From contig CAZKCV010000006.1 in assembly GCA_964551605.1 (NCBI GenBank), forward strand, positions 70-64,069: a stretch of 64,000 nt of DNA. Direction: 5' to 3'. This document shows, one piece after another, positions 1,937 through 58,360 of this stretch (position 1 is the first letter of the stretch; each line of letters starts with the position of its first letter). Both the position numbers and the translations under genes were made by a program. The notes under the pieces are model-generated. The model made no database searches. It was not told the DNA's origin and was given only the letters and a program-made list of their open reading frames with translations. This DNA comes from an uncultured Gammaproteobacteria bacterium (GTDB lineage: Bacteria > Patescibacteriota > Microgenomatia > Daviesbacterales > UBA10151).

Positions 1937-3127
1937 TTAATTCATATCAAGTACCAGTCCACCCCAGGTAAAATTTTGTGCCCCCAGACCCTCCCCTGTT
2001 TGCGGATTGAAATATTCCCGAAACCCTGATTTTTGAATTAAATTAATGGAGGTTTCCTTAATTTGTGCCGCAATATCACCAAAATCATAATTTAATAATC
2101 CTTTGTAGATAAGCCAATTAACTGCTATCCAGGTTGGCCCCCGCCAAAACCCTTTTGGGTTAAATGCAGGTTCGTCTATTGAAACAGTGGGGACCGGAAA
2201 TTTTGTCCAGAACTCTTTTTTGTTTAATAAGTGTTCAACTATTAATTTCTTTGCTTCTTCTTGGTTTAAGATTTCGGCAAATAAGGGCGTAAAGATAGCC
2301 CAGGTTTTTACTTTTATTTTTTGGTAGCCATTCCCGTAAGTTGAATAAAAAATGTCATCTTCCAGCATAAATTTCCTCATGGCTATGGAGATATTTCCTG
2401 CTTGTTTCATAAAGTAGACGGCATCTTCCTTATTCCCCAACCGTTCGGCAATTTGGGCAAGCAACTTTAGATTCGCTACCATAATGGCATTAAACGGTAC
2501 ATCTTTAACCCAGAAAAAATTCCTCATGCAGAAAGGTGCGTCAAATTTGCATTTAATATTTTGATTAACAAGCTCAAGACGTCTCTTAAGATTCTGATCT
2601 AATGTTTGTTTAGGAGGTAAGTCCAGAGGTGGATCAAAACGGGGTGAGTTATCTTCCCCTGACTCATCGGGATTCATAATTCCTATCAAATGTTTTTCGT
2701 GGGGATCCCTTTCATTGAGTAAATATTTGTAGAAGTGGTAAAGGGGGGCATAGGTTTGCATAAGGAAGTTGATATCCTTATCTTTTTTAAAAATCTGCCA
2801 CACTGCATAGGCCAGCATGGGTGGTTGGGTAATGGTGCTTGTTTTGTCTTTTCCCCATTTAATGGTAGGAAAAGCTACTTTCTTATTATTCTCCCAATAA
2901 ATCATGTGCGGAATCATGCCGTTTTGGAACTGTTTTGACAGCAGGGCCAAAATTTCCTTTTTTGCGTCTTCTGCTTTGAAATGGGATAGGATGATGGCAT
3001 GAAAACAGGAATCCCAAAGCCATTGGTAAGGGTAGGTATCAGGGGAAGGGACCGTATATTGCAGACCTGATGCCCGGCGGCGGTTTTGTTTCATCAGCTG
3101 GAGGCAGGTACTTGCGGTGCTGGCCAT
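1937..3127 (-). CDS. (alpha/alpha)6-barrel glycoside hydrolase (GH63/GH15/GDE_C-like; possible trehalase/alpha-glucosidase)
   Basis: 'YPYQWLWDSCFHA' N-terminal motif typical of the MGH/GDE_C-type toroid hydrolases. Overlaps otsB by 4 nt, so likely the same operon. Confidence 0.55.
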   Translation of the reverse strand: MASTASTCLQLMKQNRRRASGLQYTVPSPDTYPYQWLWDSCFHAIILSHFKAEDAKKEILALLSKQFQNGMIPHMIYWENNKKVAFPTIKWGKDKTSTITQPPMLAYAVWQIFKKDKDINFLMQTYAPLYHFYKYLLNERDPHEKHLIGIMNPDESGEDNSPRFDPPLDLPPKQTLDQNLKRRLELVNQNIKCKFDAPFCMRNFFWVKDVPFNAIMVANLKLLAQIAERLGNKEDAVYFMKQAGNISIAMRKFMLEDDIFYSTYGNGYQKIKVKTWAIFTPLFAEILNQEEAKKLIVEHLLNKKEFWTKFPVPTVSIDEPAFNPKGFWRGPTWIAVNWLIYKGLLNYDFGDIAAQIKETSINLIQKSGFREYFNPQTGEGLGAQNFTWGGLVLDMN

Positions 3128-3134
3128 AAATATA

Positions 3135-3923
3135 CTATACCAAAACTTTAAGTTTATTTAAGAAGAAAATGACATCTTCCGGATCTTTTAAGTAATACTT
3201 TGCTTTTGATTGGCGCTTCCTGCCTACGGTTATGGTAATTTCTTTATTCAATTTTTGAAAAGTATCCTCGTCAGTCTTGTCGTCGCCGATAACAATAGCC
3301 ACAGGTTTTTTCTTGGTCAGGGCGGCAATTTTCTTCATAACCATATCTGCAAAATAGCCCTTATTCCAAGCAGCTTTGGGAAGTATCTCCAGCACTTTTT
3401 TTCCTAAAATTGTAGAAACTAACCCCTGTTTTTTAATATTCTTTAATATTTTTTTAAGTGATAGTTTAAGTTGCGGGATTCGCTGTTTGTCTACTGCCCT
3501 AAAGTGAAATGCCAGCATTATTTTTTTATCTTCAATAAATGCCCCGTTAAATTGGTCAGTCACTTCCTGCAGTTGTTCCTTTATCTTTCTGATGGCTATT
3601 AAGCCGCTCTTTTTTACAGGAAAAATATATTGTTTATGCTGGATTTCTCCTTTGAAGCCGTGTTTACTGGCATAGATTATATCCGGTATCCCGACCCTTT
3701 GTTCCAGATCATTCAACTGCCTGCCGCTTACGACCGCTACATAAAAGTTGGGTTTTTGACAAAGGCTTTGTAATAATCTTTGGGTTCCTTTTGAAATGTT
3801 TGCCAGTTTTGGTGATTTGACGATGGGTGTGAGTGTGCCGTCAAAATCAAGGAACAAAACTTTCGGACAATCCTTCTTCAGCAAGAGGGTGATTTCATCA
3901 AGATCCTGCCATAAGTATTTCAT
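3135..3923 (-). CDS. otsB: trehalose-6-phosphate phosphatase (HAD-IIB)
   Basis: 'FLDFDGTLTPIV' HAD motif I, 'VVSGR' motif II and a C-terminal 'IGDDKTDED' motif. Confidence 0.75.
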   Translation of the reverse strand: MKYLWQDLDEITLLLKKDCPKVLFLDFDGTLTPIVKSPKLANISKGTQRLLQSLCQKPNFYVAVVSGRQLNDLEQRVGIPDIIYASKHGFKGEIQHKQYIFPVKKSGLIAIRKIKEQLQEVTDQFNGAFIEDKKIMLAFHFRAVDKQRIPQLKLSLKKILKNIKKQGLVSTILGKKVLEILPKAAWNKGYFADMVMKKIAALTKKKPVAIVIGDDKTDEDTFQKLNKEITITVGRKRQSKAKYYLKDPEDVIFFLNKLKVLV

Positions 3924-11251: not shown

Positions 11252-11857
11252 ATGCTGCCCAATCGAGTCTATTGTTATGTTGATGAAACCGGCCAGGATA
11301 CTGAGGGAAAGGTGTTTGTTGTATCAGTAGTTATCCCAAAAAATAGAGATGAAGTTTTAGAGTATGTAGAAGATGTTGAAGTAAAATCGGGTAAAGGTAA
11401 GTTTAAATGGGGCAGGGCTAAGCCAGAAAATAGGGAGAAATATTTAAAAACTATTCTCAGCCAAAGAAAGTTTCCTCTCAAAATCTATTACTCTTATTAT
11501 AAGGATACTAAAGAGTATAAAACTCAAACAATATTAACAATAGCTAAAGCTGTTTTTGCCATCAAAGATTATAAAGAACACAGATTTATTTTTTTAGTAG
11601 ATGCATTAGGTAAGAAGGATCAAAAATATTACGGATCAGAGCTTAGGAAATTGGGTGTTCCCTCAAGGGAAGTTAAGGGAGTAACAAGGGACCAAAGCGA
11701 TGCTTTAATAAGGCTCGCAGACAGCATTGTTGGATTTGTTAGAGACATACTTGAAGGCGGTAACACAGAGAAGCAGATCTTGCGATCTAATGACCTTAAA
11801 AGGCTTAAGATTTTATATAAAGAAGCAGTGGAGGAAGAAGTGCTGGTTGAGGTTTAG
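11252..11857 (+). CDS. DUF3800-family protein
   Basis: N-terminal 'YCYVDETG' matches the DUF3800 'IYIDESG' signature. Confidence 0.45.
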   Translation: MLPNRVYCYVDETGQDTEGKVFVVSVVIPKNRDEVLEYVEDVEVKSGKGKFKWGRAKPENREKYLKTILSQRKFPLKIYYSYYKDTKEYKTQTILTIAKAVFAIKDYKEHRFIFLVDALGKKDQKYYGSELRKLGVPSREVKGVTRDQSDALIRLADSIVGFVRDILEGGNTEKQILRSNDLKRLKILYKEAVEEEVLVEV

Positions 11858-12001: not shown

Positions 12002-12952
12002 TTACTCCGTAAAATAATCATAAACTGCTTTGGAGATAATGGCTATTTTTTCCTGGGCTCCGGCCGGAGAGTTGCTTTCCGACATGACTACTATTATGTA
12101 GTCTCCTTTTTCAGAAAAAATTATTCCTGAATCATGTTTAAACCAGCCTACCTCTCCGGTTTTATTGGCTATCTTAGCTTCAGCAGGCAGTTTTTTAGGT
12201 AAACCGTCAGTAAGCTTTTGGTTTTTTAAAAGATCAAACATTTCCTGAGTAGACTGTGTATCTCCCAGTTCCCCTTTGTATAGTTTTTCATAAAAACGGG
12301 CAATATCCCGCGGGGTAGAAACCGGAGAGCTGTGGCCTTCAGTGCGTACTAATGAATCATTAAAGCCCTGTTGTTTTAGCCACTCCTTAACCCGCGAAAC
12401 CTTTACTTTTTCAGTCAGCATTAAGGCAGCATAATTGTGGGAGATGGTAATCATCTGATTTAAGGCGCTTTCTATAGTAAAAGACATGGTGCCGTTTTTA
12501 AGTTCTGCCGATTCAGAGGCAATTTCAAATTTTCTGTTTAAGACAGCTATATCCCCGGTGATGGATTCATCAGCTGAAAGCTTGCCCGCCTCTATATCCT
12601 GGTAGACCATGGCCATGATCCAAAGTTTGTAGAGGCTCCCGATTTCAAAGCTTCTGGTTTCATTTACAGAAAAATCTTCCCCGGTTTTTAAATTGATGAT
12701 CACAATGCCGTAAGTTCCTTTTGTCTCCTTTAAAGCTTCATCTATGACAATTTTTAAGGGTTCAACTTTTGTCTGGACTGACAGGATATTTTTATCCCAC
12801 TTAAATTTCATTGGTATGTTTTTAAAGATCTGATAGATTCCCAGAATTAAACCTAAAACTATCAAGCTTAAAAACAAAAACCTGGTTAACTTTTTCCTGC
12901 GGCGGTTTCTTTTAAGCCGGGCAATATAAGAAGGAATCTGGCTGTCACTCAT
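12002..12952 (-). CDS. class A beta-lactamase-family serine hydrolase, membrane anchored
   Basis: SxxK ('GSLYK'), 'SHN' and 'KTG' motifs in the order expected for class A / PBP-like enzymes; N-terminal TM. Confidence 0.6.
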   Translation of the reverse strand: MSDSQIPSYIARLKRNRRRKKLTRFLFLSLIVLGLILGIYQIFKNIPMKFKWDKNILSVQTKVEPLKIVIDEALKETKGTYGIVIINLKTGEDFSVNETRSFEIGSLYKLWIMAMVYQDIEAGKLSADESITGDIAVLNRKFEIASESAELKNGTMSFTIESALNQMITISHNYAALMLTEKVKVSRVKEWLKQQGFNDSLVRTEGHSSPVSTPRDIARFYEKLYKGELGDTQSTQEMFDLLKNQKLTDGLPKKLPAEAKIANKTGEVGWFKHDSGIIFSEKGDYIIVVMSESNSPAGAQEKIAIISKAVYDYFTE

Positions 12953-18672: not shown

Positions 18673-19477
18673 TTTAGCTTTACACAGCTTTACACCCTCC
18701 GGGTGTTTTAGGTTGACACCCTTTCTCTATTATGTGTAAGATATGTTTATGGCCACACTTAGAAAGTTGGTGTTTCGTGAGGGTGAAGTCTATCATGTTT
18801 TTAACAGAGGGATAGAGCGAAGAACTACCTTTAGTGAGAAAAGAGAACTCGCAAGGATGCAGAAGCTGGTCAAATTTTATAGGCACAAAGATACTCCGGT
18901 CAGGTTTTCCCAGGTTATACAGAAACCTGAAGAGACCAGAGAGAAGTTACTGGCTGCTCTTTATAAGAGTGAAAGGGCAGTAGATATCCTAAGTTACTGC
19001 CTGATGCCCAATCATTTTCATTTTTTGCTTAAACAAAACACAGACAAAGGGATTTCCTCTTTTATATCTAATATCACAAATGGCTATACTAAATATTTTA
19101 ATACAAGATATGAAAGGATGGGTCCCCTATTTGAAGGTGTTTTTAAGGCAGTTCATATTGAAAGCGATGAGCAGTTGGTTCATGTCTCCAGGTACATCCA
19201 CCTAAACCCAGTGGTTTCCGGTGTGATACCGGATAATGAGCTTGAAAGTTACCCTTGGTCATCCTATCCGGAATATTTATCTTTATCCAACTTGGAAATA
19301 TCGCAGACAGATTTAATTTTAAGCATGTTCAAAACGATAAAAGCCTACCAGGAATTTGTTAACAATCAAATAGATTACGGTAAACAGCTGGAAGTTATCA
19401 AACATCTTACTTTAGAATGATATTCTAATTGAAGAATAGGTGTAAAGCTATATCACCCTCCGGGTGTAGCCTTAGTT
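18673..19477 (+). mobile_element. IS200/IS605-like minimal element (Y1 transposase flanked by subterminal hairpins)
   Basis: The left end carries the 48-bp block TTTAGCTTTACACAGCTTTACACCCTCCGGGTG..TTAGGTTGACACC. The right end carries GTGTAAAGCTA plus the same CACCCTCCGGGTG hairpin, then CCTTAGTT. Confidence 0.55.
18743..19420 (+). CDS. tnpA: Y1 HUH transposase (IS200/IS605 TnpA / RAYT-like)
   Basis: 'CLMPNHFHFLL' HUH motif and 'VSRYIHLNP' catalytic Tyr motif. Confidence 0.7.
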   Translation: MFMATLRKLVFREGEVYHVFNRGIERRTTFSEKRELARMQKLVKFYRHKDTPVRFSQVIQKPEETREKLLAALYKSERAVDILSYCLMPNHFHFLLKQNTDKGISSFISNITNGYTKYFNTRYERMGPLFEGVFKAVHIESDEQLVHVSRYIHLNPVVSGVIPDNELESYPWSSYPEYLSLSNLEISQTDLILSMFKTIKAYQEFVNNQIDYGKQLEVIKHLTLE

Positions 19478-22350: not shown

Positions 22351-23391
22351 TTATTTGAGGTATTTATTAAAAAACTCCACTGAACGGTTTAAGGCAACAT
22401 TAAGATTCCCGGAAATATTATGGTCATCTCCTTCATAAGTAAAAAACTCCACCTCGTTTCCGGCCTCTTTCATGGCTTCGTTTAACCTTTCACTAAAAAG
22501 TACCGGGACTTCTTCATCTCCGGTACCGTGATGCAGCTGCAACGGCCCGGAAATATCTTTTACAAAAGCTATCGGTGAAATCGATTTCCAAAACCCGGGG
22601 TTTTGATCCGGATCCCCGTACTTATCAATCAAAGCCTGACGGCCCGGCCTTCTGAATGCCTGTTCTCTTTCTGAAAGCATAAACGGCCTGGACCTGCCCC
22701 AGTTTTTTATCATGTCTTCATAAGAAGCTACCACCCCGGCCCAGATTATTCCGGCTTTAATATCTTTTGAAACTACCATTGAACGAAGTGTTAAGCTGCC
22801 GCCCATTGAGTGTCCCCACATGCCGATTCGATTTGTGTCAACCACAAATCGTCCTGAGCCTGTCGAAGGATCTCGTAATTTTTTGATTGAAGAAACGGCA
22901 TTCAAAACATCCACAGTATAAGCTGTGGAATAATAGCCCCCTTCGGGGTTTCCTTCTGACGTGCCATGGCCCCGGTAATCGGGTTTTAGGACTACATATC
23001 CGTTGCCGGAAAAAGCATCCGTGTAAGTCACATAACGGCCGGTGGTTGTGTACTGGGCCGGTGGAATATAACCATGGTTAAAGATAATTGCCGGCCACCC
23101 GCCAACCGGCGGGTGGCCTTCAGGAACAGTTAATGAAGCATTAATTTTTAAGCCCCCGGATTGATATGAAGCCAAATATTGCCGGTAATTGCTGCCCGGT
23201 TCCAGTTCTTCTTCAATGGTAATTTCACTGCCTGGGTAGCTTTTCTTTCTCATCTCTGTGATTTGTAAAGGATGCGGATCGCCGAGGGTACTTACTTTTT
23301 CAGATTGCGTGGGTGGATCCTGGTTTTTCTGAAAAAATATCCCCGTTCCCAAAAGGCTCAGTATCCCAAAAAGGAAAATGATTTTCTTCAT
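22351..23391 (-). CDS. secreted alpha/beta-hydrolase (S9/DLH-like esterase/peptidase)
   Basis: Signal peptide; 'GMWGHSMGG' nucleophile elbow. Confidence 0.6.
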   Translation of the reverse strand: MKKIIFLFGILSLLGTGIFFQKNQDPPTQSEKVSTLGDPHPLQITEMRKKSYPGSEITIEEELEPGSNYRQYLASYQSGGLKINASLTVPEGHPPVGGWPAIIFNHGYIPPAQYTTTGRYVTYTDAFSGNGYVVLKPDYRGHGTSEGNPEGGYYSTAYTVDVLNAVSSIKKLRDPSTGSGRFVVDTNRIGMWGHSMGGSLTLRSMVVSKDIKAGIIWAGVVASYEDMIKNWGRSRPFMLSEREQAFRRPGRQALIDKYGDPDQNPGFWKSISPIAFVKDISGPLQLHHGTGDEEVPVLFSERLNEAMKEAGNEVEFFTYEGDDHNISGNLNVALNRSVEFFNKYLK

Positions 23392-25986: not shown

Positions 25987-26925
25987 ATGGATATTGTAAC
26001 CATTATTTTAGTAGTCGGAGGGCTGGTTTTATTCGAAACAGTTTCTTCCATTGATAACGCAGTTATTAATGCCGAGGTTCTTTCCACCATGAGCAGGAAA
26101 GCCAGAAGATGGTTTCTGCTCTGGGGACTGCTGATTGCAGTTTTTCTGCTTCGGGGAGCTTTGCCCTGGGCTATTGTCTGGGCTGTTAATCCGGGTTTGG
26201 GTCCGATTGGATCATTTACTGCTGCTTTAAGTTCTGACCCGGCGGTGGCAGAGGCCATTGAGGGCTCCAAGCACATCCTGCTTTCGGGTGGAGGCATATT
26301 TTTAGTTTTTTTGTTTTTCCATTGGCTGTTCCTGGAATCGAAAAACTTCGGCCTGCGGGGTGAGCGGTTTTTCCAGCGGCAGGGTGTCTGGTTTTATGCA
26401 GTAGTGTCTCTGATTTTGGCAGGAGTAGTCTGGTTTTCCATAAATAAGGATCCGTTCATGGCTTTCGGAGCAGTCTTAGGTTCAACTGCTTTTTTTATTA
26501 CCCACGGGTTTAAGGAGAATGCCAGACAGGCTGAAGAACAGATGCTTCACAACAAAGATACCGGATTGTCTGACATGAGCAAGATTTTTTACCTGGAAGT
26601 GATAGATGCGACTTTTTCCATTGATGGTGTGGTAGGAGCCTTTGCTTTTACCCTGTCCGTGCCCTTAATTTTGCTGGGAAACGGCATTGGGGCTTTGGTA
26701 GTCAGGCAACTGACGGTTTCCAATATAGACAGGATCAAGAAATATATTTACCTAAAAAACGGTGCTATGTACTCTATCTTTTTCTTAGGATCAATTATGC
26801 TGGCAGACAGCTTTGGACTGCATATCCCAGCCTGGTTGTCTCCGGTGGTGACTGCGGTGGTAATTGCTTATTTCTTCCTAAAATCAAAACGATCGCTGGT
26901 TGACACCTTGAAGGTGTCAACCTAA
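25987..26925 (+). CDS. TerC/DUF475-like integral membrane protein
   Basis: 'ETVSSIDNAVINA' resembles the TerC 'E..LSVDNA' motif; multi-TM. The last 8 codons lie inside a REP-like hairpin. Confidence 0.4.
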   Translation: MDIVTIILVVGGLVLFETVSSIDNAVINAEVLSTMSRKARRWFLLWGLLIAVFLLRGALPWAIVWAVNPGLGPIGSFTAALSSDPAVAEAIEGSKHILLSGGGIFLVFLFFHWLFLESKNFGLRGERFFQRQGVWFYAVVSLILAGVVWFSINKDPFMAFGAVLGSTAFFITHGFKENARQAEEQMLHNKDTGLSDMSKIFYLEVIDATFSIDGVVGAFAFTLSVPLILLGNGIGALVVRQLTVSNIDRIKKYIYLKNGAMYSIFFLGSIMLADSFGLHIPAWLSPVVTAVVIAYFFLKSKRSLVDTLKVST

Positions 26926-26960
26926 CCCACCCCCGGGGTGGGATACGCACACACCGTAGG
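26898..26960. repeat. REP-like composite: GGTTGACACC-TTGAA-GGTGTCAACC hairpin plus CCCACCCCCGGGGTGGG hairpin
   Basis: Read directly. It provides the C-terminal codons and stop of the preceding gene. Confidence 0.6.
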
Positions 26961-28734: not shown

Positions 28735-29793
28735 ATGTTTGAACCGCGATACAACATTACCACTCTGACCCTTTCCCGGATTGCTGAAATTGCCGAGATA
28801 AAAGCGGCCGTTGAAAGGTCCCGCGTTTTGCCCTTAAATGAAGCTCAACTGAGGCGCCAGGCAATTCTGCGGATGGCCCATACCTCCACGTCAATTGAGG
28901 GAAATAAATTAGCTGAATTTGAAGTGGGGAAAGTCCTGGAAGGAAAGTCTGTCCGGGCGACCCAAAAGGATATTGTAGAGGTGGAAAACTACTACCAGGC
29001 CCTAAAGCTGATTGAGAAAATGGCCAGGGAAAAAGGCAATATAACGGTGGCGGAAATATTAAAATTACACAAGGCGGTGGTTGAAGGACTGGTGGAAAAT
29101 GAGAAAGTCGGGAGTTTCAGACCGGCTGATGTTTATGTATTGGATGATTTGGGAGACGGCCGGGAAATGTTAAGGTTTAAGGCCCCCCCTGCTTCCGGGG
29201 TTGAAAAAATGATAGAGGATTTAATGGCCTGGCTTAGATCATCAAAAAAAACAGGTATCCACCCGATTATCCGGGCCGGTATTTTGCACCTGCAGTTTGT
29301 CACCATCCACCCTTTTACAGACGGCAACGGCCGGGTGGCCAGACTCTTGACCCAGCTTCAGCTTTACCGGGACGGCTGGGATTTTCGGAAAATTTTGGTG
29401 CTGGAGGACTATTATAACCAGGACCGGATGTCTTATTATAATGCGGAAAACCGGGCCCAGGGAAAAACTTACCAGGAGGACATGGATTTTACCAACTGGC
29501 TGGAATACTTTACCACCGGGTTTTTGGTGGAAGCCAGAAAGGTTTTGGAACAAATCCAGTCAATAGGGTTTGGTAAAGTCAGCAGGAAGAGCGAGCAGAT
29601 CTTTTTAGACCGGGATGAGATTCAGGTAATGGATTTTTTGACTACTACAGGCAGGATTACCTCAGATGATGTGGCAGATATCTTAAAAGTAGCCAAAAGG
29701 ACTGCCCAGCTTAAGCTTAAGAATTTATCGGATAAGGGTCTGCTTAAATTAAAAGGCAAAGGCCCCAGCTCTTATTATATCCTTGCGCGATAG
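28735..29793 (+). CDS. Fic family protein (class II, N-terminal inhibitory helix; C-terminal wHTH)
   Basis: 'HPFTDGNGRVAR' Fic motif and 'STSIEGN' inhibitory motif. Confidence 0.8.
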   Translation: MFEPRYNITTLTLSRIAEIAEIKAAVERSRVLPLNEAQLRRQAILRMAHTSTSIEGNKLAEFEVGKVLEGKSVRATQKDIVEVENYYQALKLIEKMAREKGNITVAEILKLHKAVVEGLVENEKVGSFRPADVYVLDDLGDGREMLRFKAPPASGVEKMIEDLMAWLRSSKKTGIHPIIRAGILHLQFVTIHPFTDGNGRVARLLTQLQLYRDGWDFRKILVLEDYYNQDRMSYYNAENRAQGKTYQEDMDFTNWLEYFTTGFLVEARKVLEQIQSIGFGKVSRKSEQIFLDRDEIQVMDFLTTTGRITSDDVADILKVAKRTAQLKLKNLSDKGLLKLKGKGPSSYYILAR

Positions 29794-33557: not shown

Positions 33558-34391
33558 ATGAGTTTTCTTGAGAGATTGTTGCATGGTATACAGGCAAGAG
33601 AAGAAATAGAGCGGAAAGCACAGATCTCAACAGCCGAGAAAGCTGAACTTGAAGCTAAAGCGGTTATTGAGACAAAAGAAAGTGATGTAAGAGATGAAAA
33701 TGCCAGACAATCAGTAATAAAGCAGGAAATAAAAGACGCTCTAGAAAGATATTCTGTAAAAGAGAGACTAGAGGCAATACGTGATGGTGTTTGGAAAGTG
33801 GGAGAGGTTAAGCCAAACGATAGAACCAATGACGGTCTCTACTTAATACATACATACCCAGCAGCAGTTCCAATTATGGTGAGAGGTACATGGACTGTGC
33901 CAACTCACGAGTCGCCCGCCTCTGGTAGTGGAGGCCCTAAAGAATGGACTTATAGCGGGTGGACGCACAATGGTTTTTTCAAAGAAGGAAGAAGGTTTGA
34001 CGCTGTAGTTATTAGAGCTCGAGCTACAGCCCACAAATCACCAGGCTCATCAAAGTTTACTGCAACCTCATCAAATCTTGTTTTTGATGCTGGTGGTGGA
34101 TGGTATGGATTAGAGCCAAAAGATAATTTTGATTGGCATTATGTACCGATGGAATATAGAGGTAGTTTTACGGAAAATTATAGGCACTTTCATGGATACG
34201 GGGAAATTGGCATTAATTCTCCTTCATATTTAGAAATGGTGATAACTGATTACTGCCACGATATAATTACAAACAAAAGAATTTCAACAGCCTATTACAA
34301 AATAACTGAACATAGCAGACTACCTCTACAAGCGGAGGCTGAAGAACAAAATAATTTAATAGGATTAAGACAAGCTGGGAAAATAAGATAA
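33558..34391 (+). CDS. hypothetical protein (coiled-coil N-terminus plus Gly/Trp/Tyr-rich globular domain)
   Basis: 277-aa ORF; N-terminus paralogous to the next gene. Confidence 0.45.
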   Translation: MSFLERLLHGIQAREEIERKAQISTAEKAELEAKAVIETKESDVRDENARQSVIKQEIKDALERYSVKERLEAIRDGVWKVGEVKPNDRTNDGLYLIHTYPAAVPIMVRGTWTVPTHESPASGSGGPKEWTYSGWTHNGFFKEGRRFDAVVIRARATAHKSPGSSKFTATSSNLVFDAGGGWYGLEPKDNFDWHYVPMEYRGSFTENYRHFHGYGEIGINSPSYLEMVITDYCHDIITNKRISTAYYKITEHSRLPLQAEAEEQNNLIGLRQAGKIR

Positions 34392-34422
34392 TAGCAGCTT
34401 TGAACACATTAAATTAAACCAT

Positions 34423-34956
34423 ATGGGATTTATAGAAAAATTAAAACAAGAAAAAGAAGCAATAGAGCAAGGGAAGGCAATCCAGCAGGCTAAATTAACT
34501 GAGGCAGAAGCACTTCATCAACAAAGAAGAGAGCAGGCCGCTACCTTTCGCACGGAAAGTGGAATCGGGGATCTAGCATTAACAGCTGCTGATCTTCTCA
34601 AAAAAGTAAGGTTTCCAGATGCTTCATATAGTAACGGCCAAGCTATTCAAAATCAATCAATTACAGAAGTTGATAGCGTTTTTGATAGTATCAGATGGGG
34701 TAAATTATCAAGAACTAGTTATATGAGATCTCCTCGCAAGGGCAATTATTATGTTAGTATTGCAACAAGACCTAATGGACAAATCGTTTTTTATGCGCAG
34801 AAAGAAATTTTAATACCAGAAACCGACTGGCGAAAGGACAAGGATCTTCTGGAACGCACTTTAGAACAAGCTTTGAATTTGCCAGGCGAAGCGTATGAGC
34901 CCGAAAAGGAAATTAACTATGGACCTTATATACCGCCTCTAAAGCCGAATTTTTAG
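34423..34956 (+). CDS. hypothetical protein (N-terminus paralogous to 33558..34391)
   Basis: 'MGFIEKLKQEKEAIEQ' versus 'MSFLERLLHGIQAREEIE'. Confidence 0.45.
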   Translation: MGFIEKLKQEKEAIEQGKAIQQAKLTEAEALHQQRREQAATFRTESGIGDLALTAADLLKKVRFPDASYSNGQAIQNQSITEVDSVFDSIRWGKLSRTSYMRSPRKGNYYVSIATRPNGQIVFYAQKEILIPETDWRKDKDLLERTLEQALNLPGEAYEPEKEINYGPYIPPLKPNF

Positions 34957-34967
34957 TGAATGAATTT

Positions 34968-35093
34968 CTGATATGCATACTTATACAGTTTTTAGTTCTA
35001 AGGCGTAGACTAAATCTGGTAACAGACCGTCAGATAGGAATAATCTGATGAATTCTGGCAGTCTGGCTAAGATCACGTCAGGAGCTCCATACG
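34968..35093. repeat. noncoding segment X, duplicated at 36570-36707 (about 85% identity)
   Basis: Shared strings include GAATTTCTGATATGCATA..., GACCGTCAGATAGGAA and GAATTCTGGCAGTCTGGCTAAGA..GTCAGGAGCTCCATACG. Confidence 0.6.
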
Positions 35094-35215
35094 AATTTTA
35101 TTGAAATAACAAACTTTAGCTTCAAAAAATTGCTAAAATTTGTCGAAATTTAATCCTATAACATAGGACCACAACGGGAATCGAACTAGCCTTAAGCTTG
35201 TTATTTCTCTTCTAG
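35094..35215. repeat. noncoding segment Y, duplicate of 33219-33345 (follows tRNA-Gly in copy 1)
   Basis: ACGAATTTTAT..TTAGCTTCAAAAAATTGCT...GGAATCGAACTAGCCTTAA conserved in both copies. Confidence 0.6.
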
Positions 35216-35365
35216 GACGGGTTCATCAAAATCTCCCATCCATTTCGACCCATAAAATTCTTGCATAACAGCACATGCCAATAAATAAACAACCTCTTGG
35301 ATATCTTTTAGCTCTTCTTCTGAAACATCGGGATAGTATTTTCTTATTTCTTCCATAGGTAGCAT
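35201..35365 (-). CDS. 54-aa acidic protein (paralog of 33331..33495)
   Basis: The track ORF 35201..35401 is trimmed to the Met preceded by AAGGTGGTGA. Sequence MLPMEEIRKYYPDVSEEELKDIQEVVYLLACAVMQEFYGSKWMGDFDEPVLEEK. Confidence 0.45.
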   Translation of the reverse strand: MLPMEEIRKYYPDVSEEELKDIQEVVYLLACAVMQEFYGSKWMGDFDEPVLEEK

Positions 35366-35463
35366 CAACAAATCACCACCTTTTCTCCAATTACTAATCA
35401 CTTATTTTCTTCAACTATAGCTAATTATCGAAAGCTTCTAAAATTTGCTATACTGGATTCAGT

Positions 35464-36381
35464 ATGGAAAACAGTCCGGAAATGCCAGTTCAATCTTCTA
35501 CTATGCAAGGTCAGGCTGATATATCTACTCTGTTACCACCACAACAACAGCAAACACAACCGCTTTATTTCAAACACAGTGGCTTTATCGTAAGACTTTT
35601 TGCCCTTATTGTTGATGTAGTTATTATTTTATTAATTACACTTCTGTTAAACCTTATTCTTCAGTTAGCCACTGGACAGTCATTAAATTACAGTAAAGGT
35701 TCCCTATTTCAATTTCTGGTAACACTTATTTCCCTCATATATTCAATCACTTTTGTTGCGCTATATGGTGCTACTCCAGGCAAAATGCTCCTTCGTCTTA
35801 GGATTGTAAATACAAATTATCAGAAAGTTAGCTTCTTTCAAGTATTGAAGCGTGAAACAGGAGGCAAGATACTTTCAGGATTAGTTTTTAATCTCGGTTA
35901 TTTATGGGCTGCCATTGATAACAAAAAACAGGCTTGGCATGATAAAATTGCTAAAACCTACGTTATCCATATAGAACCCATTAGCTATCAGGAATATTTA
36001 AAGCAACAGGAAAAAGGCAAAATAGGTTCACTTCCTTATGTTTTAATCTTCGCAGGAGCAGCAGAAGTAATCTTTATATCATTCTTTGCATTTTCAGTTG
36101 TGAGACAGCTAACAACACTTTACGAAACCATGGAAACAGGTGGGTATAATCCTTTAATTACATACTTAATGTTAGGAATAATAGGATTGAGTTGTTTTGC
36201 TCAAATTATATGGGGCAGTATATTATGGTCTAAGAAAAAGGCACCAGAAACCATAAGTCAGAGTTCTATCAAAACTGCTAAAGTTCTACTAATACTCGGA
36301 GCAACTTTATTTTTCTTACTAATTCCATTCCTTGTTTTGTCTGTTATTCTTCCAATTTACAAATTAACAACTTCGTTTTAA
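35464..36381 (+). CDS. RDD-family membrane protein with C-terminal extra TM domain
   Basis: 'WHDKIAKTYVI' RDD-domain C-terminal motif; TM helices on both sides. Confidence 0.5.
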   Translation: MENSPEMPVQSSTMQGQADISTLLPPQQQQTQPLYFKHSGFIVRLFALIVDVVIILLITLLLNLILQLATGQSLNYSKGSLFQFLVTLISLIYSITFVALYGATPGKMLLRLRIVNTNYQKVSFFQVLKRETGGKILSGLVFNLGYLWAAIDNKKQAWHDKIAKTYVIHIEPISYQEYLKQQEKGKIGSLPYVLIFAGAAEVIFISFFAFSVVRQLTTLYETMETGGYNPLITYLMLGIIGLSCFAQIIWGSILWSKKKAPETISQSSIKTAKVLLILGATLFFLLIPFLVLSVILPIYKLTTSF

Positions 36382-36569
36382 CTAACTTAAGAATACACAA
36401 GATTTTTAGCATCACCAGATATTCAAAAACTGAAAATGTGTCGTACAAGTTTGAGTATATTAATGTATAATTATTTTTACCGAATGATCCTTGTGGTGAA
36501 AGTACCTTACTATTAGGGAGCTAATGTTGACATCATAATCGATGATTCATCTTGGCCACGAGGATCGAA

Positions 36570-36707
36570 TTTCTGATATGCATATTTATGCATTTTTTAG
36601 ACCTAAGGCATAGACGAAGTCAGGTAGTAGACCGTCAGATAGGAACATTTTGAAGAATTCTGGCAGTCTGGCTAAGACCTCGTCAGGAGCTCCATACGGA
36701 ATACCCT
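36570..36707. repeat. noncoding segment X, copy 2
   Basis: See 34968-35093. Confidence 0.6.
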
Positions 36708-36840
36708 GTGTATCAAGTCCCGAATATATTGATACAACGGGCTAATCGTCAATGTTTCATAAATCAAGTTGTTTTCTGATTTAAGTATTTTTTAATTTTT
36801 AGCCTCATTTTGGTTCGAATCCCGTCTCTTTACCAAAGAC

Positions 36841-36893
36841 TTGTCAATTATATTGACAAATAACTTGACAATTAAAATTGTCCTTTATATAAT
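36841..36893 (+). promoter_or_regulatory. 19-bp perfect palindrome (TTGTCAATTATATTGACAA) plus consensus sigma70 promoter TTGACA-17-TATAAT upstream of Fic gene 2
   Basis: Palindrome 36841-36859, -35 at 36865-36870, -10 at 36888-36893, GGAG then ATG at 36900. Confidence 0.55.
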
Positions 36894-36899
36894 TGGAGT

Positions 36900-37910
36900 A
36901 TGTTTAAACCAAAATATACTTTAACTCCCGAAATCCTCAATAATATTAATGAGATAGAAAGGCTTTATGGACGACTTGAGGGTTTGACTATTCCCCGACA
37001 TCTTTTATTAAATCTTGAACGGGACAATTTAATTCAATCTGCATATATTTCAAATAGCATTGAGGGTAATCCTCTCTCTCAAGCAGAAGTAACAAATCTA
37101 TTGTTAAATGATAGGATACCGGTTAATCGGGATGAAAAAGAAGTGGTCAATTACTTTAAAATTTTAAAAACTCTTCATAAAAGAATTGGACAACCCTTTG
37201 ACCTTAATATTATTCTTGATATTCATACGGAATTAATGGAAGCGGTTAGTGATAAAATCAAAGGTAAAATTCGAAATAAGCAAATAGTAATAGGCAATTA
37301 TGGTGAAGACAATAAAATTATTATTAAACATAATCCTCCGTTTCACACATATTTAGAAATAGAGCAGTCTCTAAAAAAACTTCTGAATTGGATTCAAGAT
37401 AGCGCTGAACCATCTATTTTAAAAGCGGGATTGTTTCATCATCAATTTGTTTTTATTCATCCGTTTGAGGATGGCAATGGAAGAGTGTGCAGGTTATCAA
37501 CGGCGCTATTTTTATTAAAAAATAACTATCTTATTAATAAGTACTTTGTTCTGGATGATTATTATGATATTGATAGACAGCAATATTCGGATAAATTACA
37601 TACTGCTGATTTTGGGGACAAGACAGAATGGTTAAAGTATTTTACAGATGGAGTGAAATATTCATTACAAAGCGCATTAGGAAAGGTTGAATCAGGACTC
37701 ACCAATCTTACGTTTGATATTCGTCCAACTCCTAAGGAACAGGTAGCTTTAGCAATAATACAAAAGTATAGAGAAATTAATTCCGCTGATTTAGTAAAAG
37801 AGCTCAATATAACAAGACAACAGGCGTTCAATCTTCTAAGAGCTCTTACAAAAAAGGGTTATCTTGAAAAAAAGGGCATCACTAAAAGTAGTTTTTATAT
37901 CTTAAAATAG
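36900..37910 (+). CDS. Fic family protein (class II; C-terminal wHTH)
   Basis: 'HPFEDGNGRVCR' and 'SNSIEGN'. Confidence 0.8.
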   Translation: MFKPKYTLTPEILNNINEIERLYGRLEGLTIPRHLLLNLERDNLIQSAYISNSIEGNPLSQAEVTNLLLNDRIPVNRDEKEVVNYFKILKTLHKRIGQPFDLNIILDIHTELMEAVSDKIKGKIRNKQIVIGNYGEDNKIIIKHNPPFHTYLEIEQSLKKLLNWIQDSAEPSILKAGLFHHQFVFIHPFEDGNGRVCRLSTALFLLKNNYLINKYFVLDDYYDIDRQQYSDKLHTADFGDKTEWLKYFTDGVKYSLQSALGKVESGLTNLTFDIRPTPKEQVALAIIQKYREINSADLVKELNITRQQAFNLLRALTKKGYLEKKGITKSSFYILK

Positions 37911-38045
37911 CACATTCTACTGTTTATAGTATACATCCTAGTTAAAAATTGTTATTGCGCTTTATAGAGATCGCCGTTTGCCATTTCCAAAGGATAGCAT
38001 ATTTTGCCTGTACAATTAAAATGAATTGATGTTACAATACTTTCT

Positions 38046-44300: not shown

Positions 44301-44348
44301 TTTAGCTTTACACAGCTTTACACCCTCCGGGTGGTTTAGGTTTACACC
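44301..44348. repeat. 48-bp copy (46/48) of the left-end block of the 18673 element
   Basis: TTTAGCTTTACACAGCTTTACACCCTCCGGGTGGTTTAGGTTTACACC, 20 bp downstream of the tRNA-Arg 3' end. Confidence 0.7.
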
Positions 44349-44441: not shown

Positions 44442-44575
44442 AAGGTCGCACTGACTATTTTAACAATTTAGGGCTAATTAAGCAAAGCTGATACAATTCA
44501 CCTCAAGAATATCCCACCTGGGGGGTGGATTTCTACGTTCGCCAGTTGGCGAAGGAAAGCTTTGCTTATTGACAC

Positions 44576-45561: not shown

Positions 45562-46860
45562 TTAAAGCTTAAACCTCCTATCAGCCAGAAAGGGATTAGG
45601 CTTGCGGCGGATTCCTGGTGAGGTTAGCAGGATGCCGCGCTGCAGGGTAAATTCTCCGTATTTGTCATTAATTTTATCCAAAGCCCGGGTGATAATTTCC
45701 TTTCTTTTAACTTCCGGCAAAAAGCTTAAATTCTGGGGAGTTTGTGGTCTAAGGTTGGAAACAGACAGACCTATCATCCTGATCTTTTCACCAGTCCAGA
45801 TTTGGTGAAAAATTTTCCAGGCTGCCTGAAAGATTTCCAGGCCGTCATTGGTAAAATGAATGGTGGTTTGCATGCTGTCACCGGAGAATACGTTCTCACG
45901 GTGTGCGGCTATCCCACCCCTGGGGTGGGATAGGTTGACACCGTATAGATCTAAAGCCTTTCTGTACCAGCAGTGGATGGTTTTACCGACCAGTCTTTTA
46001 GCCCTCAGTCTTCTGGCTACCATTTCTGAAAGTTTCAGTATGATTTGTTTAATCTCGGCCGGATTGTTTGTATCATGGCTAATGGTATGCCGGTGCCCGA
46101 TACTTTTTACCTCTCCTTTTTCGTAGAAAGGAATAATCGGTGAATGGTCAATACCCCTGGCCATGTTATACAGAATTTGGCCGTAACTTTTAAAGGAAGC
46201 CAGTAAGCTTGCTAAAGGTGCTTGCCTGAGCTGGTAAAAATTAGATATCCCTAAGTTATTAAGCCTTTTTTTAATCCGGGAGCCGATGCCGCAGATTTCA
46301 TCCAGCTCAATCCGGTCCAGAATTTTAATGGCCTCTTCCTGATTAGGAATGATTACTAAACCATCAGGTTTTTGTAGGGATCCGGCCAGCTTGGCCATTA
46401 ATTTGTTATAAGAGATGCCGATGGAACAAGTTATCACTTCACCAATTTCACTTCGAATTCTTCTTTTAATATCTAAAGCCATCGGTATAACATTGTGAGA
46501 AGATGTTTCTAAAAAACACTCATCTATAGAAAACACCTCTAGTTTTGAGCTGTAGTCTTTTAAGATATTTATAAATCTTTTGGTAGTTTCCAGATACTTA
46601 TCAGAATCCCCCGGTACCAAAATAATTTGCGGACAAAGCTTGCGGGCTTCCCAAATCTGCATCCCGGTTTTAACCCCATATTTCTTGGCCTCTACGGAAG
46701 CTGCACCTAAGACTGTTCTTTTCATTCTATCCCCTCCGGTTACTCCAATAGGTTTTCCCCGCAGCCTGGGGTTTGCCTGCTGTTCCACTGAAGCAAAATA
46801 AGAATTGAAGTCAATGTGTAATATAGCTTTCATAAGCTTGCCCTTGTCAAAAATTGTCAT
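45562..46860 (-). CDS. dinB: Y-family DNA polymerase (DinB/Pol IV-like) with an extra insert
   Basis: 'ILHIDFNSYFASVE' and 'SIDECFLE' catalytic motifs. At 432 aa it is longer than typical Pol IV. Confidence 0.75.
   Translation of the reverse strand: MTIFDKGKLMKAILHIDFNSYFASVEQQANPRLRGKPIGVTGGDRMKRTVLGAASVEAKKYGVKTGMQIWEARKLCPQIILVPGDSDKYLETTKRFINILKDYSSKLEVFSIDECFLETSSHNVIPMALDIKRRIRSEIGEVITCSIGISYNKLMAKLAGSLQKPDGLVIIPNQEEAIKILDRIELDEICGIGSRIKKRLNNLGISNFYQLRQAPLASLLASFKSYGQILYNMARGIDHSPIIPFYEKGEVKSIGHRHTISHDTNNPAEIKQIILKLSEMVARRLRAKRLVGKTIHCWYRKALDLYGVNLSHPRGGIAAHRENVFSGDSMQTTIHFTNDGLEIFQAAWKIFHQIWTGEKIRMIGLSVSNLRPQTPQNLSFLPEVKRKEIITRALDKINDKYGEFTLQRGILLTSPGIRRKPNPFLADRRFKL
45911..45946. repeat. 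REP-like element (TCCCACCCCTGGGGTGGGA hairpin plus TAGGTTGACACCGTA) inside the dinB coding sequence
   Basis: Read directly; in frame it encodes 'YGVNLSHPRGGIA'. Confidence 0.6.
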
Positions 46861-53908: not shown

Positions 53909-54877
53909 ATGAATTTCTGGCAAAAGCTCAAAAAGCCTTTTTTTATTTTAGCCCCTATGGATGGGGTAACTGATACGGTTTTCCGGCAGATTGTAGCCTC
54001 TGTGGGTAAACCGGACGTGTTTTTAACCGAATTTGTACCGGTTGATGCCTTAATGTCGAAGCACTCTGAGAGGGCTTTGGAAACCCTAAAATTTACAGAA
54101 TCTGAAAGGCCGATGGTAGCCCAAATCTGGGGGTCTGAACCGGAGAAGTTTTACAAAGTAGCCCAAATGCTTGCCCAAATGAAATTTGATGGCATAGATA
54201 TCAATATGGGCTGTCCGGATAAAGCTGCGGTAAGAAAAGGCGGCTGTTCTGCTTTAATTAAAAATCCCCAACTGGCTGTAGAGATTATTGAGGCCACCAT
54301 CAAAGGAGCCGGTGGTTTGCCTGTCAGTGTGAAAACCAGGATCGGTTTTAGCAGCATTGATACTGAAAACTGGGTTACCTCCCTGCTGCAAACCCCTATT
54401 TCAGCTTTAATTCTGCACCTTCGGACAGTCAGGGAAATGTCCAAACCTCCGGCTCATTGGGATGAAATCAGTAAAGCCGTTCTGGTCAGAAATAAAATCA
54501 AATCCAAAGCCCTCATTATTGGCAATGGGGATATAAAAAGCCTTAAAGAGGCCAGAGATAAGTGTCTGGAATACGGAATAGACGGAGTAATGATAGGCCG
54601 GGGTATTTTTGAAAATCCCTGGGTTTTCAATGAAAAAATAGATATAGAGAAAGTTTCCCGGGAAGATAAAATAGCTTTGTTTGTCAGACACCTGGAACTA
54701 TATAAAACAGTCTGGGGGCAAAAGAAAAACTTTGCCAACATGAAAAAATTTGTTAAAACCTATGTCAAAGGCTTCAGGGAAGCCACCGAAGTCCGGGAAG
54801 ATTTAATGCGGACTAAAAGCATTGATGAATTAATCCAAAAATCCCAACTAACCCACCCCCGGGGTGGGTTAGGTTGA
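53909..54877 (+). CDS. dus: tRNA-dihydrouridine synthase
   Basis: 'ILAPMDGVTD' plus a TIM-barrel FMN-site Cys. The C-terminus 'LTHPRGGLG*' is encoded by a REP-like element. Confidence 0.8.
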   Translation: MNFWQKLKKPFFILAPMDGVTDTVFRQIVASVGKPDVFLTEFVPVDALMSKHSERALETLKFTESERPMVAQIWGSEPEKFYKVAQMLAQMKFDGIDINMGCPDKAAVRKGGCSALIKNPQLAVEIIEATIKGAGGLPVSVKTRIGFSSIDTENWVTSLLQTPISALILHLRTVREMSKPPAHWDEISKAVLVRNKIKSKALIIGNGDIKSLKEARDKCLEYGIDGVMIGRGIFENPWVFNEKIDIEKVSREDKIALFVRHLELYKTVWGQKKNFANMKKFVKTYVKGFREATEVREDLMRTKSIDELIQKSQLTHPRGGLG

Positions 54878-54885
54878 CACCGTAC
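54849..54885. repeat. REP-like element (CCCACCCCCGGGGTGGG plus TTAGGTTGACACCGTA) overlapping the dus stop
   Basis: Read directly. Confidence 0.6.
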
Positions 54886-57479: not shown

Positions 57480-57489
57480 GTTTTAATCC

Positions 57490-58273
57490 AACCCCCGGTG
57501 TTAGATAGCTTCAAACCTAAGGATTATTCCAGGGTTAGATGTTTTATCCTATTAAGTTGTCTTTGGTAATCTGCTTGGTCTAATACAAACTGATAATATC
57601 TCTCTGAGCTTTTGCAGAAATTCAGTATGTCTCTTGTTTGTATAAATGGGTATATCGCACCTGCATTTAGGTAGGTTCCGAAGGAAGACCACTTATATTC
57701 TAATAATTTTTCAGGTTCAACTATATAATCGGTAGCAGGGTTTAGGTGTATATACCTGGAGACATGCAACAACTGTTCATCCGTCACAATCCTGACCGCC
57801 TTAAACATAGATTGAAATAATGGGCCAACCCGTTCATTTTTAATATTTAAGTATTTGGCATAACCGTTTTGTAAATTAGACAGGAAAACAGAAATCCCTT
57901 TTTCTGTTAATTGTTTCAATAAAAAATGAAAATGATTGGGCATTAGACAAAAAGCTAGTATTTCTACATGAGTCTTATTTTCTTTCTTTAATCCCTCTAA
58001 AATTTTCTCTCTGAGATCTCTCGGCATCTTCTTGAATTGAGAAAAACTGGTAGGTGTATCAACAAAACGGTAATAGTCAACTAATTCCAGGAACCTTTGA
58101 TAATCGCTATTAGAATAAAATATTGGTAAAGCTGCTACTCCTCTATTATAGACATGGTAAATCTGATCCTGAGCCAGGATGACTTTTCTATATGGCATAT
58201 CCCCATATTATCAGAGTTGTTAACTTTTTCAAGAGTTAATCCTTAGGTTGGAACGTAACTAACACCCGGTGTT
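57490..58273 (-). mobile_element. IS200/IS605-like minimal element 2 (hairpin-IR ... IR-hairpin)
   Basis: AACCCCCGGTGTT (57490-57502) plus AACCTAAGG (57514-57522) on the left. CCTTAGGTT (58241-58249) plus AACACCCGGTGTT (58261-58273) on the right. Confidence 0.55.
57524..58198 (-). CDS. tnpA: Y1 HUH transposase (paralog of 18743..19420)
   Basis: 'CLMPNHFHFLL', 'VSRYIHLNP', shared C-terminal 'IKHLTLE'. Confidence 0.7.
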   Translation of the reverse strand: MPYRKVILAQDQIYHVYNRGVAALPIFYSNSDYQRFLELVDYYRFVDTPTSFSQFKKMPRDLREKILEGLKKENKTHVEILAFCLMPNHFHFLLKQLTEKGISVFLSNLQNGYAKYLNIKNERVGPLFQSMFKAVRIVTDEQLLHVSRYIHLNPATDYIVEPEKLLEYKWSSFGTYLNAGAIYPFIQTRDILNFCKSSERYYQFVLDQADYQRQLNRIKHLTLE

Positions 58274-58360
58274 GGAGATTTGTTGCTGGAGGTTTTAGGC
58301 CTTACTTTTTTGTTACCCAATATTGATATAAACCTTATCCTTATCCTGTAGCATTTCTTT

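Follow-up and report, generated by a model that had tools for sequence, protein, structure and literature searches.

RESULTS

A palindrome lies in frame within dinB

The window analyzed here is a 64,000-nucleotide stretch of contig CAZKCV010000006.1 (assembly GCA_964551605.1) from an uncultured bacterium that homolog names place in Candidatus Daviesbacteria (Microgenomates). On its minus strand lies dinB (45562..46860), an open reading frame (ORF) of 432 amino acids that encodes a Y-family DNA polymerase IV (Pol IV). This ORF contains, in frame, a palindrome that a preliminary description of the sequence likened to a repetitive extragenic palindrome (REP). The product carries the IMS, IMS_HHH, and IMS_C domains, with Pfam matches to PF00817 (1.4e-40), PF11799 (1.8e-22), and PF21999 (6.6e-10), and we compared it with 120 Daviesbacteria orthologs. 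The little finger (IMS_C) spans residues 252-379. Translation probably starts at Met10 (46833), judging from the ortholog consensus, which would yield the 423 amino acids of the deposited protein P0001.

The core of the element is a 23-nt palindrome, TATCCCACCCC-T-GGGGTGGGATA, at 45910..45932 (written TATCCCACCCCTGGGGTGGGATA), in which an 11-bp stem encloses 1 central base; a hairpin scan extended this to 12 perfect base pairs around a 1-nt loop (45909-45933). In the minus-strand frame, the region is translated as ...LDLYGVNLSHPRGGIAAHRENVF... and ...CWYRKALDLYGVNLSHPRGGIAAHRENVFSGDSMQTT.... This core is the portion that the preliminary description had noticed. Allowing up to 3 mismatches, it recurs at 26923-26945 and 54849-54871, which makes three copies in 64 kb compared with an expectation of 0.00 matches from 100 dinucleotide-preserving shuffles of the window. 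A REP-like element within the polymerase frame was therefore correctly recognized. Its size, given as 36 bp and 12 amino acids, was too small. An alignment of eight family copies defines a common unit of approximately 47 nt (45898..45944, minus strand) with arms GGTGTCAACC and CACACCGT, in which ACGGTGTCAACC is followed by the core palindrome and GCCGCACACCGT, or, written in order, ACGGTGTCAACC, the 23-nt palindrome, and (G)C(C)GCACACCGT. DNA alignment with orthologs delimits a longer in-frame insert of 63 nt, or 21 codons (45892..45954, minus strand; residues 303-323, LDLYGVNLSHPRGGIAAHREN).

As a whole, the 63-nt insert forms a single extended but imperfect hairpin with an outer stem (TCT.ACGGTGT/ACACCGT.AGA), an internal loop, and the 11-bp inner stem. 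The predicted RNA fold energy is -33.7 kcal/mol (z -5.6), and none of 200 shuffles was as stable; the corresponding DNA fold energy is -17.9 kcal/mol (z -5.0). Read in the frame used, the insert has no stop codon. Neither strand has a T-run after the hairpin, and we therefore rejected an intrinsic terminator despite the GC-rich stem. A promoter was likewise rejected, as a correctly spaced -10 hexamer is lacking. An Rfam scan of the window at gathering thresholds returned five tRNAs only and no RNA family at the element. In the dinB element family, the hairpin is followed by T-TAGGTTGACACC, an architecture found also in the repeats beside the transposase genes described below, and the end tag of the family copies in the window is ATAG, TTAG, or ATAC at the position where the classical REP tag, GTAG, would stand.

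The insert is missing from the nearest orthologs

The two nearest orthologs, P0002 (82% identity) and P0008 (79%), read CWYREA-GFQGFG-MQTT at the corresponding position and lack the insert residues. At the DNA level, their empty site is ...TGGTATCGGGAAGCC|GGCTTTCAG..., and exactly the 63 nt missing in both are carried by the query and by ortholog P0031. Every outgroup DinB, from other phyla and including the other Candidate Phyla Radiation (CPR) groups sampled, also has a compact turn without the insert. Orthologs without the REP thus lack the residues as well, and the insertion postulated at the outset stands.

Between the query and P0031, the insert is 90.5% identical at the nucleotide level and holds few synonymous changes, compared with 72.5% identity for the rest of the gene, where dS is about 2. 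Only 6 of 313 windows along the gene are as similar as the insert, and the 60 nt to its left are 82% identical, which is above the gene average. Given this higher identity, the insert may be either young or constrained. The inserts of different orthologs have a common left boundary, GCN-TTY/TTA, which may belong to the repeat itself. In comparison with a miniature inverted-repeat transposable element, the dinB element is one long inverted repeat, and a duplication is not definable from filled and empty dinB sites.

In a neighbor-joining tree of the DinB proteins, insert types are scattered and the sisters of the query are empty. Taken with the high insert identity between the query and P0031, this pattern favors a mobile pool from which inserts were gained and lost repeatedly, rather than one ancient insertion; alleles may also have been transferred by recombination. 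We dropped an argument for a single origin that relied on all GVN-type inserts having one orientation, because both orientations encode nearly the same peptide; in contig L085, a Mur-ligase-like ORF contains the element in frame and translates its opposite strand as NGVSLTHPWGGLDRH. In the genome that encodes P0008, a ClpB-like AAA gene (L089, 11220-12665) sits between dinB and the adjoining epimerase gene. The window lacks this gene, so local synteny around dinB is variable.

The insert maps to a predicted surface loop of a maintained polymerase

We modeled DinB with AlphaFold2 (mean predicted local distance difference test [pLDDT] score, 80.5). Little-finger strands 290-301 and 330-337 flank the insert, which sits at the tip of the β2-β3 hairpin, and residues 308-327 have a pLDDT of <50. 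The model thereby bears out the little-finger location first suggested, and the 21 residues, which are rich in Gly, Pro, His, and Arg, probably form a disordered surface loop at the hairpin tip. The remainder of the model matches DinB/Dpo4-DNA complexes with Foldseek target TM scores of 0.82-0.85. The best solved relatives are Pol IV and Dbh, and the closest solved Pol IV (7yll) is gapped at the position of the insert.

Among the 120 orthologs, approximately 90 alignment columns are invariant, including the catalytic residues D113 and E114, and D17 is nearly so. The ratio of nonsynonymous to synonymous substitution rates (dN/dS) between the query and three orthologs ranges from 0.057 to 0.102, and the ORF is intact up to its conserved C-terminus. 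Judged by its sequence, dinB looks selectively maintained and still functional, with polymerase activity in the presence of the loop as a prediction. The unusual length noted for this protein is explained by the insert in part only: 21 of about 80 extra residues come from it, 9 come from the upstream start, and insert-free orthologs already reach 397-409 amino acids owing to a C-terminal extension. Across all 120 orthologs, lengths range from 397 to 485 amino acids.

Two loops of DinB carry inserts across the Daviesbacteria

The alignment of the 120 orthologs revealed that the interval between the CWYR.A and F.G.G-MQTTI motifs, which holds the query insert, is hypervariable. About 30 of these proteins have a compact, 8-residue turn; the others, about three quarters, carry inserts of 5-45 amino acids. 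The inserts belong to unrelated families, among them HPRGV...HPGGV and HLRGE...HLGGV (two inverted palindromes each, resembling the REP doublets forming hairpins known as REPINs), PTSEVG, MHNPGL..QTGI, and VIPAKAGIH, in addition to the GVN.SHPRGG.ASH type of the query. Their DNA almost always forms strong hairpins, along a continuum of decay from perfect palindromes to remnants such as those in L005, L011, and L034. Among the genome loci, all 35 insert-bearing alleles keep the frame through the downstream MQTTI..DG motif, a pattern that speaks for translation of the inserts and against their removal.

The catalytic IDE.FL motif is immediately followed by a second hotspot, at about query residue 122 (window position ~46495), where the query itself is empty. 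Inserts at this site reach about 50 amino acids and contain peptides typical of REP origin (SVIPAKAGIQ.., SVIARSE.TKQS..LAMT, and HLRGV..TSEV), and in L008 the same palindrome pair occupies both hotspots.

Hairpin density was quantified across 44 genome loci. In dinB, perfect GC-rich stems of at least 9 bp occur at 0.35 per kb, versus 0.06 per kb in 666 kb of flanking DNA, and 11 stems of at least 13 bp lie in dinB versus none in the flanks. In an S9-type hydrolase gene that served as a control, no interval of similar variability was seen at the site examined, and the internal GC-rich palindrome is native.

Related repeats lie at gene ends and occasionally within other ORFs

The second copy of the family in the window, copy A (26898..26958, plus strand), lies between convergent genes and consists of a GGTTGACACC-TTGAA-GGTGTCAACC palindrome, the family core at 26923-26945, and a CACACCGTAG arm. 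The GGTTGACACC-TTGAA-GGTGTCAACC part supplies the last ~8 codons (VDTLKVST) together with the stop codon of an ORF for a DUF475/TerC membrane protein (25987..26925, plus strand). A syntenic, orthologous copy is present in metagenome contig L086, where the DUF475/TerC ORF ends earlier.

The third copy, copy C (54849..54883, minus strand), gives dus (53909..54877) both its C-terminal tail, (L)THPRGGLG, and its TGA stop, which lies within GGTTGACACC. The dus product ends in QLTHPRGGLG, and its ortholog in L089 ends in NLLWKS, consistent with the earlier remark that the same element supplies the Dus C-terminus. The HPRGG frame is open in the forward orientation, and in reverse it meets the TGA within GGTTGACACC. 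This orientation-dependent stop accounts for read-through in dinB but termination of dus. In addition, a degenerate hairpin resembling the dinB family, TATCCCACCTGGGGGGTGGAT (44510..44530), is found 45 nt beyond the 3' end of the dinB-adjoining epimerase gene.

A metagenome scan found matches to the 23-nt core on eight contigs of 29-45% GC. In four related contigs (L082, L083, L084, and L088), a glycosyltransferase gene contains the element in frame (GVSILTHPRGGLE). The glycosyltransferase carriers and the Mur-ligase-like carrier come from organisms of 29-39% GC, with in-frame status read from the ORFs. Outside dinB, 24 of 28 copies in the related loci and the window are extragenic, mostly ~4-60 nt from a gene end and more commonly at the 3' end. 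Copies of the dinB element family normally lie a short way beyond the ends of genes; some overlap a gene end and donate a short C-terminal tail and a stop.

Two further candidates for in-frame insertion were rejected. The first, at 23093-23118 within an S9/alpha-beta hydrolase ORF (22351..23391, minus strand), is a palindrome of 85% GC whose stem measures 11 bp. It encodes GHPPVGGWP, a native motif of constant length in 120 orthologs, and serves as a negative control. The second, a REP-like CACCTCCGAGGTG in the epimerase gene of L003, encodes the native ASTSEVYG motif. There, the stretch that encodes ASTSEVYG (11817-11834, CCACCTCCGAGGTGTA) is identical to a REP core in dinB inserts, a match that probably arose by chance through codon complementarity. 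Because complementary codons make Pro/Gly motifs palindromic, in-frame repeats should be named with caution. In L041, the dinB-adjoining epimerase appears to have an in-frame REP-type peptide (EINSEILRRFTPRDD, 12785-12804) just before the conserved QIYHLASPA.

Two RAYT-like transposase genes are bracketed by inverted palindromes

The window encodes two Y1 (HUH) transposases resembling REP-associated tyrosine transposases (RAYTs). RAYT-1 (18743..19420, plus strand; Pfam PF01797, E = 3.7e-10) is a candidate for the enzyme that mobilizes the repeats. RAYT-2 (57527..58198, minus strand), which was detected by tblastn (PF01797, E = 1.7e-7), is 49% identical to RAYT-1. The HUH motif MPNHFHF (H91 and H93) and the catalytic tyrosine motif SRYIHLNP (Y151) are invariant across RAYT homologs. 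These homologs are uniformly about 223 amino acids long across Daviesbacteria and Levybacteria, and most of their protein clusters occur on one to a few contigs.

Upstream of RAYT-1 lies a REP, TTTAGCTTTACACAGCTTTA-CACCCTCCGGGTG-TTTT-AGGTTGACACC (18673..18720, plus strand), and downstream lies CACCCTCCGGGTG followed by TAG, that is, by a GTAG tag (19454..19469, plus strand). A third copy of this type, nearly identical to the upstream one, is intergenic and adjoins tRNA-Arg (44301..44348, plus strand). Together, the three copies make up a second REP family of the form ..AGCTTTACACCCTCCGGGTG..AGGTTGACACC, whose two long members share about 50-70 nt. TTGACA within the repeat may serve as the -35 hexamer of a RAYT-1 promoter, with TAAGAT ~17 nt downstream and a leaderless mRNA as a possible product. 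RAYT-2 is flanked by TCCAACCCCCGGTGTTAGA on its 3' side (57487..57505) and by CTAACACCCGGTGTTGGAG, inverted relative to it, on its 5' side (58259..58277). With these palindromes, the window has two repeat families related to that of the dinB element. Both genes are therefore bracketed by inverted palindromes, the "REPtron" arrangement. This layout defines REP/RAYT systems (PMC3733652).

RAYT orthologs in L002, L006, L093, and L094 are likewise flanked by repeats. Those in L093 and L094 have the architecture of the dinB element, GGTGTCAA-hairpin-TTGACACC and CCCACC..GGTGGG-TTAGCTTGACACC; they can also be written as GGTGTCAAT-hairpin-GTTGACACC and CCCACCCTCCAGGTGGGTTAGCTTGACACC, the latter being almost the CCCACCCCCGGGGTGGGTTAGGTTGACACC of the window. 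Matches to dinB inserts were also found. The REP adjoining RAYT-1 shares 20 nt at 100% identity with the L018 dinB insert, and the REPs flanking the L002 RAYT match the dinB insert of L030. The stem of the REP downstream of RAYT-1 is followed by GTAG (19464-19469), as are those of the dinB inserts carried by L018 and L004. The L004 insert has a 58-nt copy with 95% identity elsewhere in the same locus. In L004 and L023, the RAYT-flanking REP and the dinB insert of the same genome share architecture, not sequence. Two copies of GACACCCTCCGGGTGTATTAGC in L023 (3020-3040 and 3686-3701) bracket a 181-amino-acid ORF (3089..3634) that had no match in a tblastn search with RAYT and may be another REP-flanked gene.

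Elsewhere in the window are two ORFs with Fic/DOC domains (28735-29793 and 36900-37910). The GC content at 34000-38000 is 0.33-0.36, compared with about 0.42, and this segment may be acquired DNA.

DISCUSSION

In this analysis, we found a stem-loop palindrome inside dinB that has dispersed copies, which lie mostly in extragenic DNA near gene ends, and Y1/HUH genes flanked by repeats in the same window. On the strength of these features, we class the dinB element as a REP-type repeat of a putative RAYT-like system. The explanation we consider best, with a probability of roughly 0.8, is that a RAYT-type REP inserted into a permissive loop of dinB and adds, by read-through, a disordered stretch of 21 residues, leaving a functional dinB as its carrier. 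The element would move as a single-stranded hairpin handled by a RAYT-like enzyme. An insert without a stop codon at the tip of the β2-β3 hairpin would be read through, giving a 21-residue loop on an otherwise intact Pol IV, and the added loop would be functionally neutral.

Several observations weigh against this explanation. The best NCBIfam match of RAYT-1, "REP-associated tyrosine transposase," scores 50.8 bits, which is below the cutoff of 80. No RAYT gene in the window is flanked by repeats of the dinB family themselves, so the link between this family and RAYT would come from shared architecture and from sister genomes. The classical GTAG tag is replaced by ATAG/TTAG in the dinB-element family. 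A comparison of filled and empty sites revealed no clear target-site duplication or defined insertion target. In the eight-copy alignment, covariation is unsupported: the inner stem does not vary, and a score as high as the observed one was obtained in 373 of 500 shuffles. For this reason, the case for the hairpin is one of thermodynamics and sequence identity only. The production of the loop peptide is a prediction from the kept frame. Finally, neutral tolerance alone falls short of explaining how rich dinB is in palindromes relative to the 666 kb of flanking DNA.

This last point bears on how the two loops came to be filled. One possibility, which we put forward tentatively, is that they are preferred and perhaps site-specific landing sites for RAYT-mobilized palindromes throughout the Daviesbacteria. 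REP mobilization could be mechanistically coupled to dinB when it is expressed or single-stranded; alternatively, loop insertions that retune a mutagenic polymerase could have been repeatedly selected.

Among the other explanations, the hairpin might be kept for a role in cis that restrains the mutagenic polymerase, by throttling translation, marking the transcript for RNase cleavage, or sensing single-strandedness, with the peptide as a by-product. The stability of the fold (-33.7 kcal/mol), the high identity of the insert and its scarcity of synonymous changes (90.5% versus 72.5%), and the enrichment of strong hairpins in dinB (0.35 versus 0.06 per kb, and 11 versus 0 at 13 bp or more) all agree with such a role, as does the fact that nearly all ortholog inserts form strong hairpins despite their differing sequences. 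However, about a quarter of the orthologs do without an insert, including the two closest to the query, and the existing inserts grade from perfect palindromes into decayed remnants. The stems show no covariation in the eight-copy alignment, the missing T-run speaks against an intrinsic terminator, and the same element sits at gene ends elsewhere in the manner of ordinary REPs. We therefore consider a cis role unlikely.

A single ancestral insertion could instead have diversified in place, through template switching that kept the arms complementary, and been spread or erased by homologous recombination between alleles. The inserts do share one codon interval and the left boundary GCN TTY/TTA, several two-arm types (CACC-N5-GGTG, twice) resemble variants of one theme, and the 82% identity to P0031 in the 60 nt left of the insert is somewhat above the gene average. 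Yet the families found at this one site (VIPAKAGIH-, NPGL-, PTSEVG-, HxxG two-arm, and GVN-type) are unrelated, and near-identical copies exist in the same genomes: two more in the window, and the 58 nt of L004 at 95%. Inserts also match the REPs that flank RAYT genes, and the outgroups and the nearest relatives of the query keep the compact ancestral turn. With these data, diversification in place seems quite improbable.

The preliminary description had also raised the suspicion that dinB is a pseudogene in disguise, which would make the insertion a symptom of relaxed selection on a decaying gene. Foreign DNA within the gene, the wide range of ortholog lengths (397 to 485 amino acids), and the fact that DinB is dispensable in many bacteria could be read this way. 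We consider decay very improbable, given dN/dS values of 0.06-0.10 against three orthologs, ~90 invariant columns that include D113/E114, the full Pol IV fold in the model, an ORF that is intact to its conserved C-terminus, and 35 of 35 insert-bearing alleles in frame. Last, that HPRGG is a native loop, palindromic only because CCN/GGN and CAC/GTG are complementary codons for Pro/Gly/His peptides, has a real precedent in the window (GHPPVGGWP at 23093-23118) but is scarcely credible for dinB, where orthologs without the palindrome are also without the residues and where 47 nt, extending beyond the Pro/Gly core, are common to noncoding copies.

These data extend in-frame palindromes and REP/RAYT-type systems, known mainly from Proteobacteria and Rickettsia, to the ultra-small bacteria of the CPR. 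Our literature searches on REP/RAYT in CPR/Patescibacteria returned nothing relevant. A lineage-wide, two-site hotspot in a translesion polymerase goes beyond the literature; it sharpens the observation made in 2013 that intragenic REPs favor repair genes, and it offers a tractable system for REP targeting. Should the preferred landing in dinB prove true, it would provide a testable handle on why intragenic REPs cluster in DNA-repair genes. In effect, the DinB orthologs are also an insertion scan of Pol IV performed by nature, in which the loop after the IDE motif and the little-finger β2-β3 tip accept 5-50 extra residues. For annotation, repeats that alter protein termini (dus and DUF475) and lengths would explain puzzling variation in the length of CPR proteins.

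Comparison with known systems

The GC clusters of the yeast mitochondrial gene var1 are GC-rich, palindromic, mobile, in frame, and strain polymorphic, in an AT-rich genome. They resemble the dinB element in being GC-rich mobile palindromes in frame within a coding gene. They differ in residing in an organelle, in their mechanism of mobilization, and in not involving a repair gene.

The REP/REPIN-RAYT systems of Proteobacteria, reportedly the subject of Nunvar 2010, Bertels & Rainey 2011, Bertels 2017, and Corneloup 2021, share with the window a conserved, apparently low-copy Y1/HUH gene flanked by inverted copies of its presumed target repeat. They likewise include paralogs with different repeat types, and many of the DinB ortholog inserts are inverted-palindrome doublets, like REPINs. 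In comparison with those systems, the copy number in the window looks much lower, at a few per 64 kb, and is rarer still in sister genomes. The proteins also fall below the NCBIfam RAYT equivalog cutoff, and TTGACA doubles as the apparent -35 hexamer of a RAYT gene.

Further parallels are intragenic REPs and the palindromic elements of Rickettsia. Intragenic REPs often lie in replication and repair genes (uvrABCD, recBCD, polA, and the error-prone dnaE2) and in tRNA pseudouridine synthases (Di Nocera, De Gregorio & Rocco 2013, PMC3733652), and they are sometimes the only intragenic REPs of a genome (PMC3733652). dinB is not mentioned in that study (Di Nocera 2013, PMC3733652). Like the dinB element, the GTAG/CGTC REPs described there lie mostly in extragenic DNA close to the 3' ends of genes, at times providing a stop codon, and a minority lie wholly in ORFs, in frame, as 20-30 amino acids (PMC3733652). 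Their hosts are likewise notably often repair/replication or tRNA-modifying genes, and their RAYT genes are flanked by repeats (PMC3733652). Unlike those REPs, the dinB element belongs to a CPR/Patescibacteria host (Daviesbacteria), has dinB as its host gene, and carries an ATAG/TTAG tag, and one codon interval is reused lineage-wide by many unrelated repeat families.

Rickettsia palindromic elements (RPEs) are Rickettsia-specific palindromic elements of about 100-150 bp that lie in frame in unrelated protein-coding genes (Ogata et al. 2000, 2002, summarized in PMC10969869). The preliminary description had called an in-frame REP unusual; the insertion is indeed a multiple of 3 nt and in frame, but REPs and RPEs of this kind, with a bias toward repair genes, are documented (PMC3733652, PMC10969869). 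Compared by behavior, not sequence, RPEs are, like the dinB element, selfish palindromic DNA that is in frame and read through where the fold tolerates it. The dinB element differs in its length of 63 nt, in its Daviesbacteria host, and in the RAYT-like candidate transposase near related repeats. The dinB element therefore works like an RPE but lies outside the RPE sequence families.

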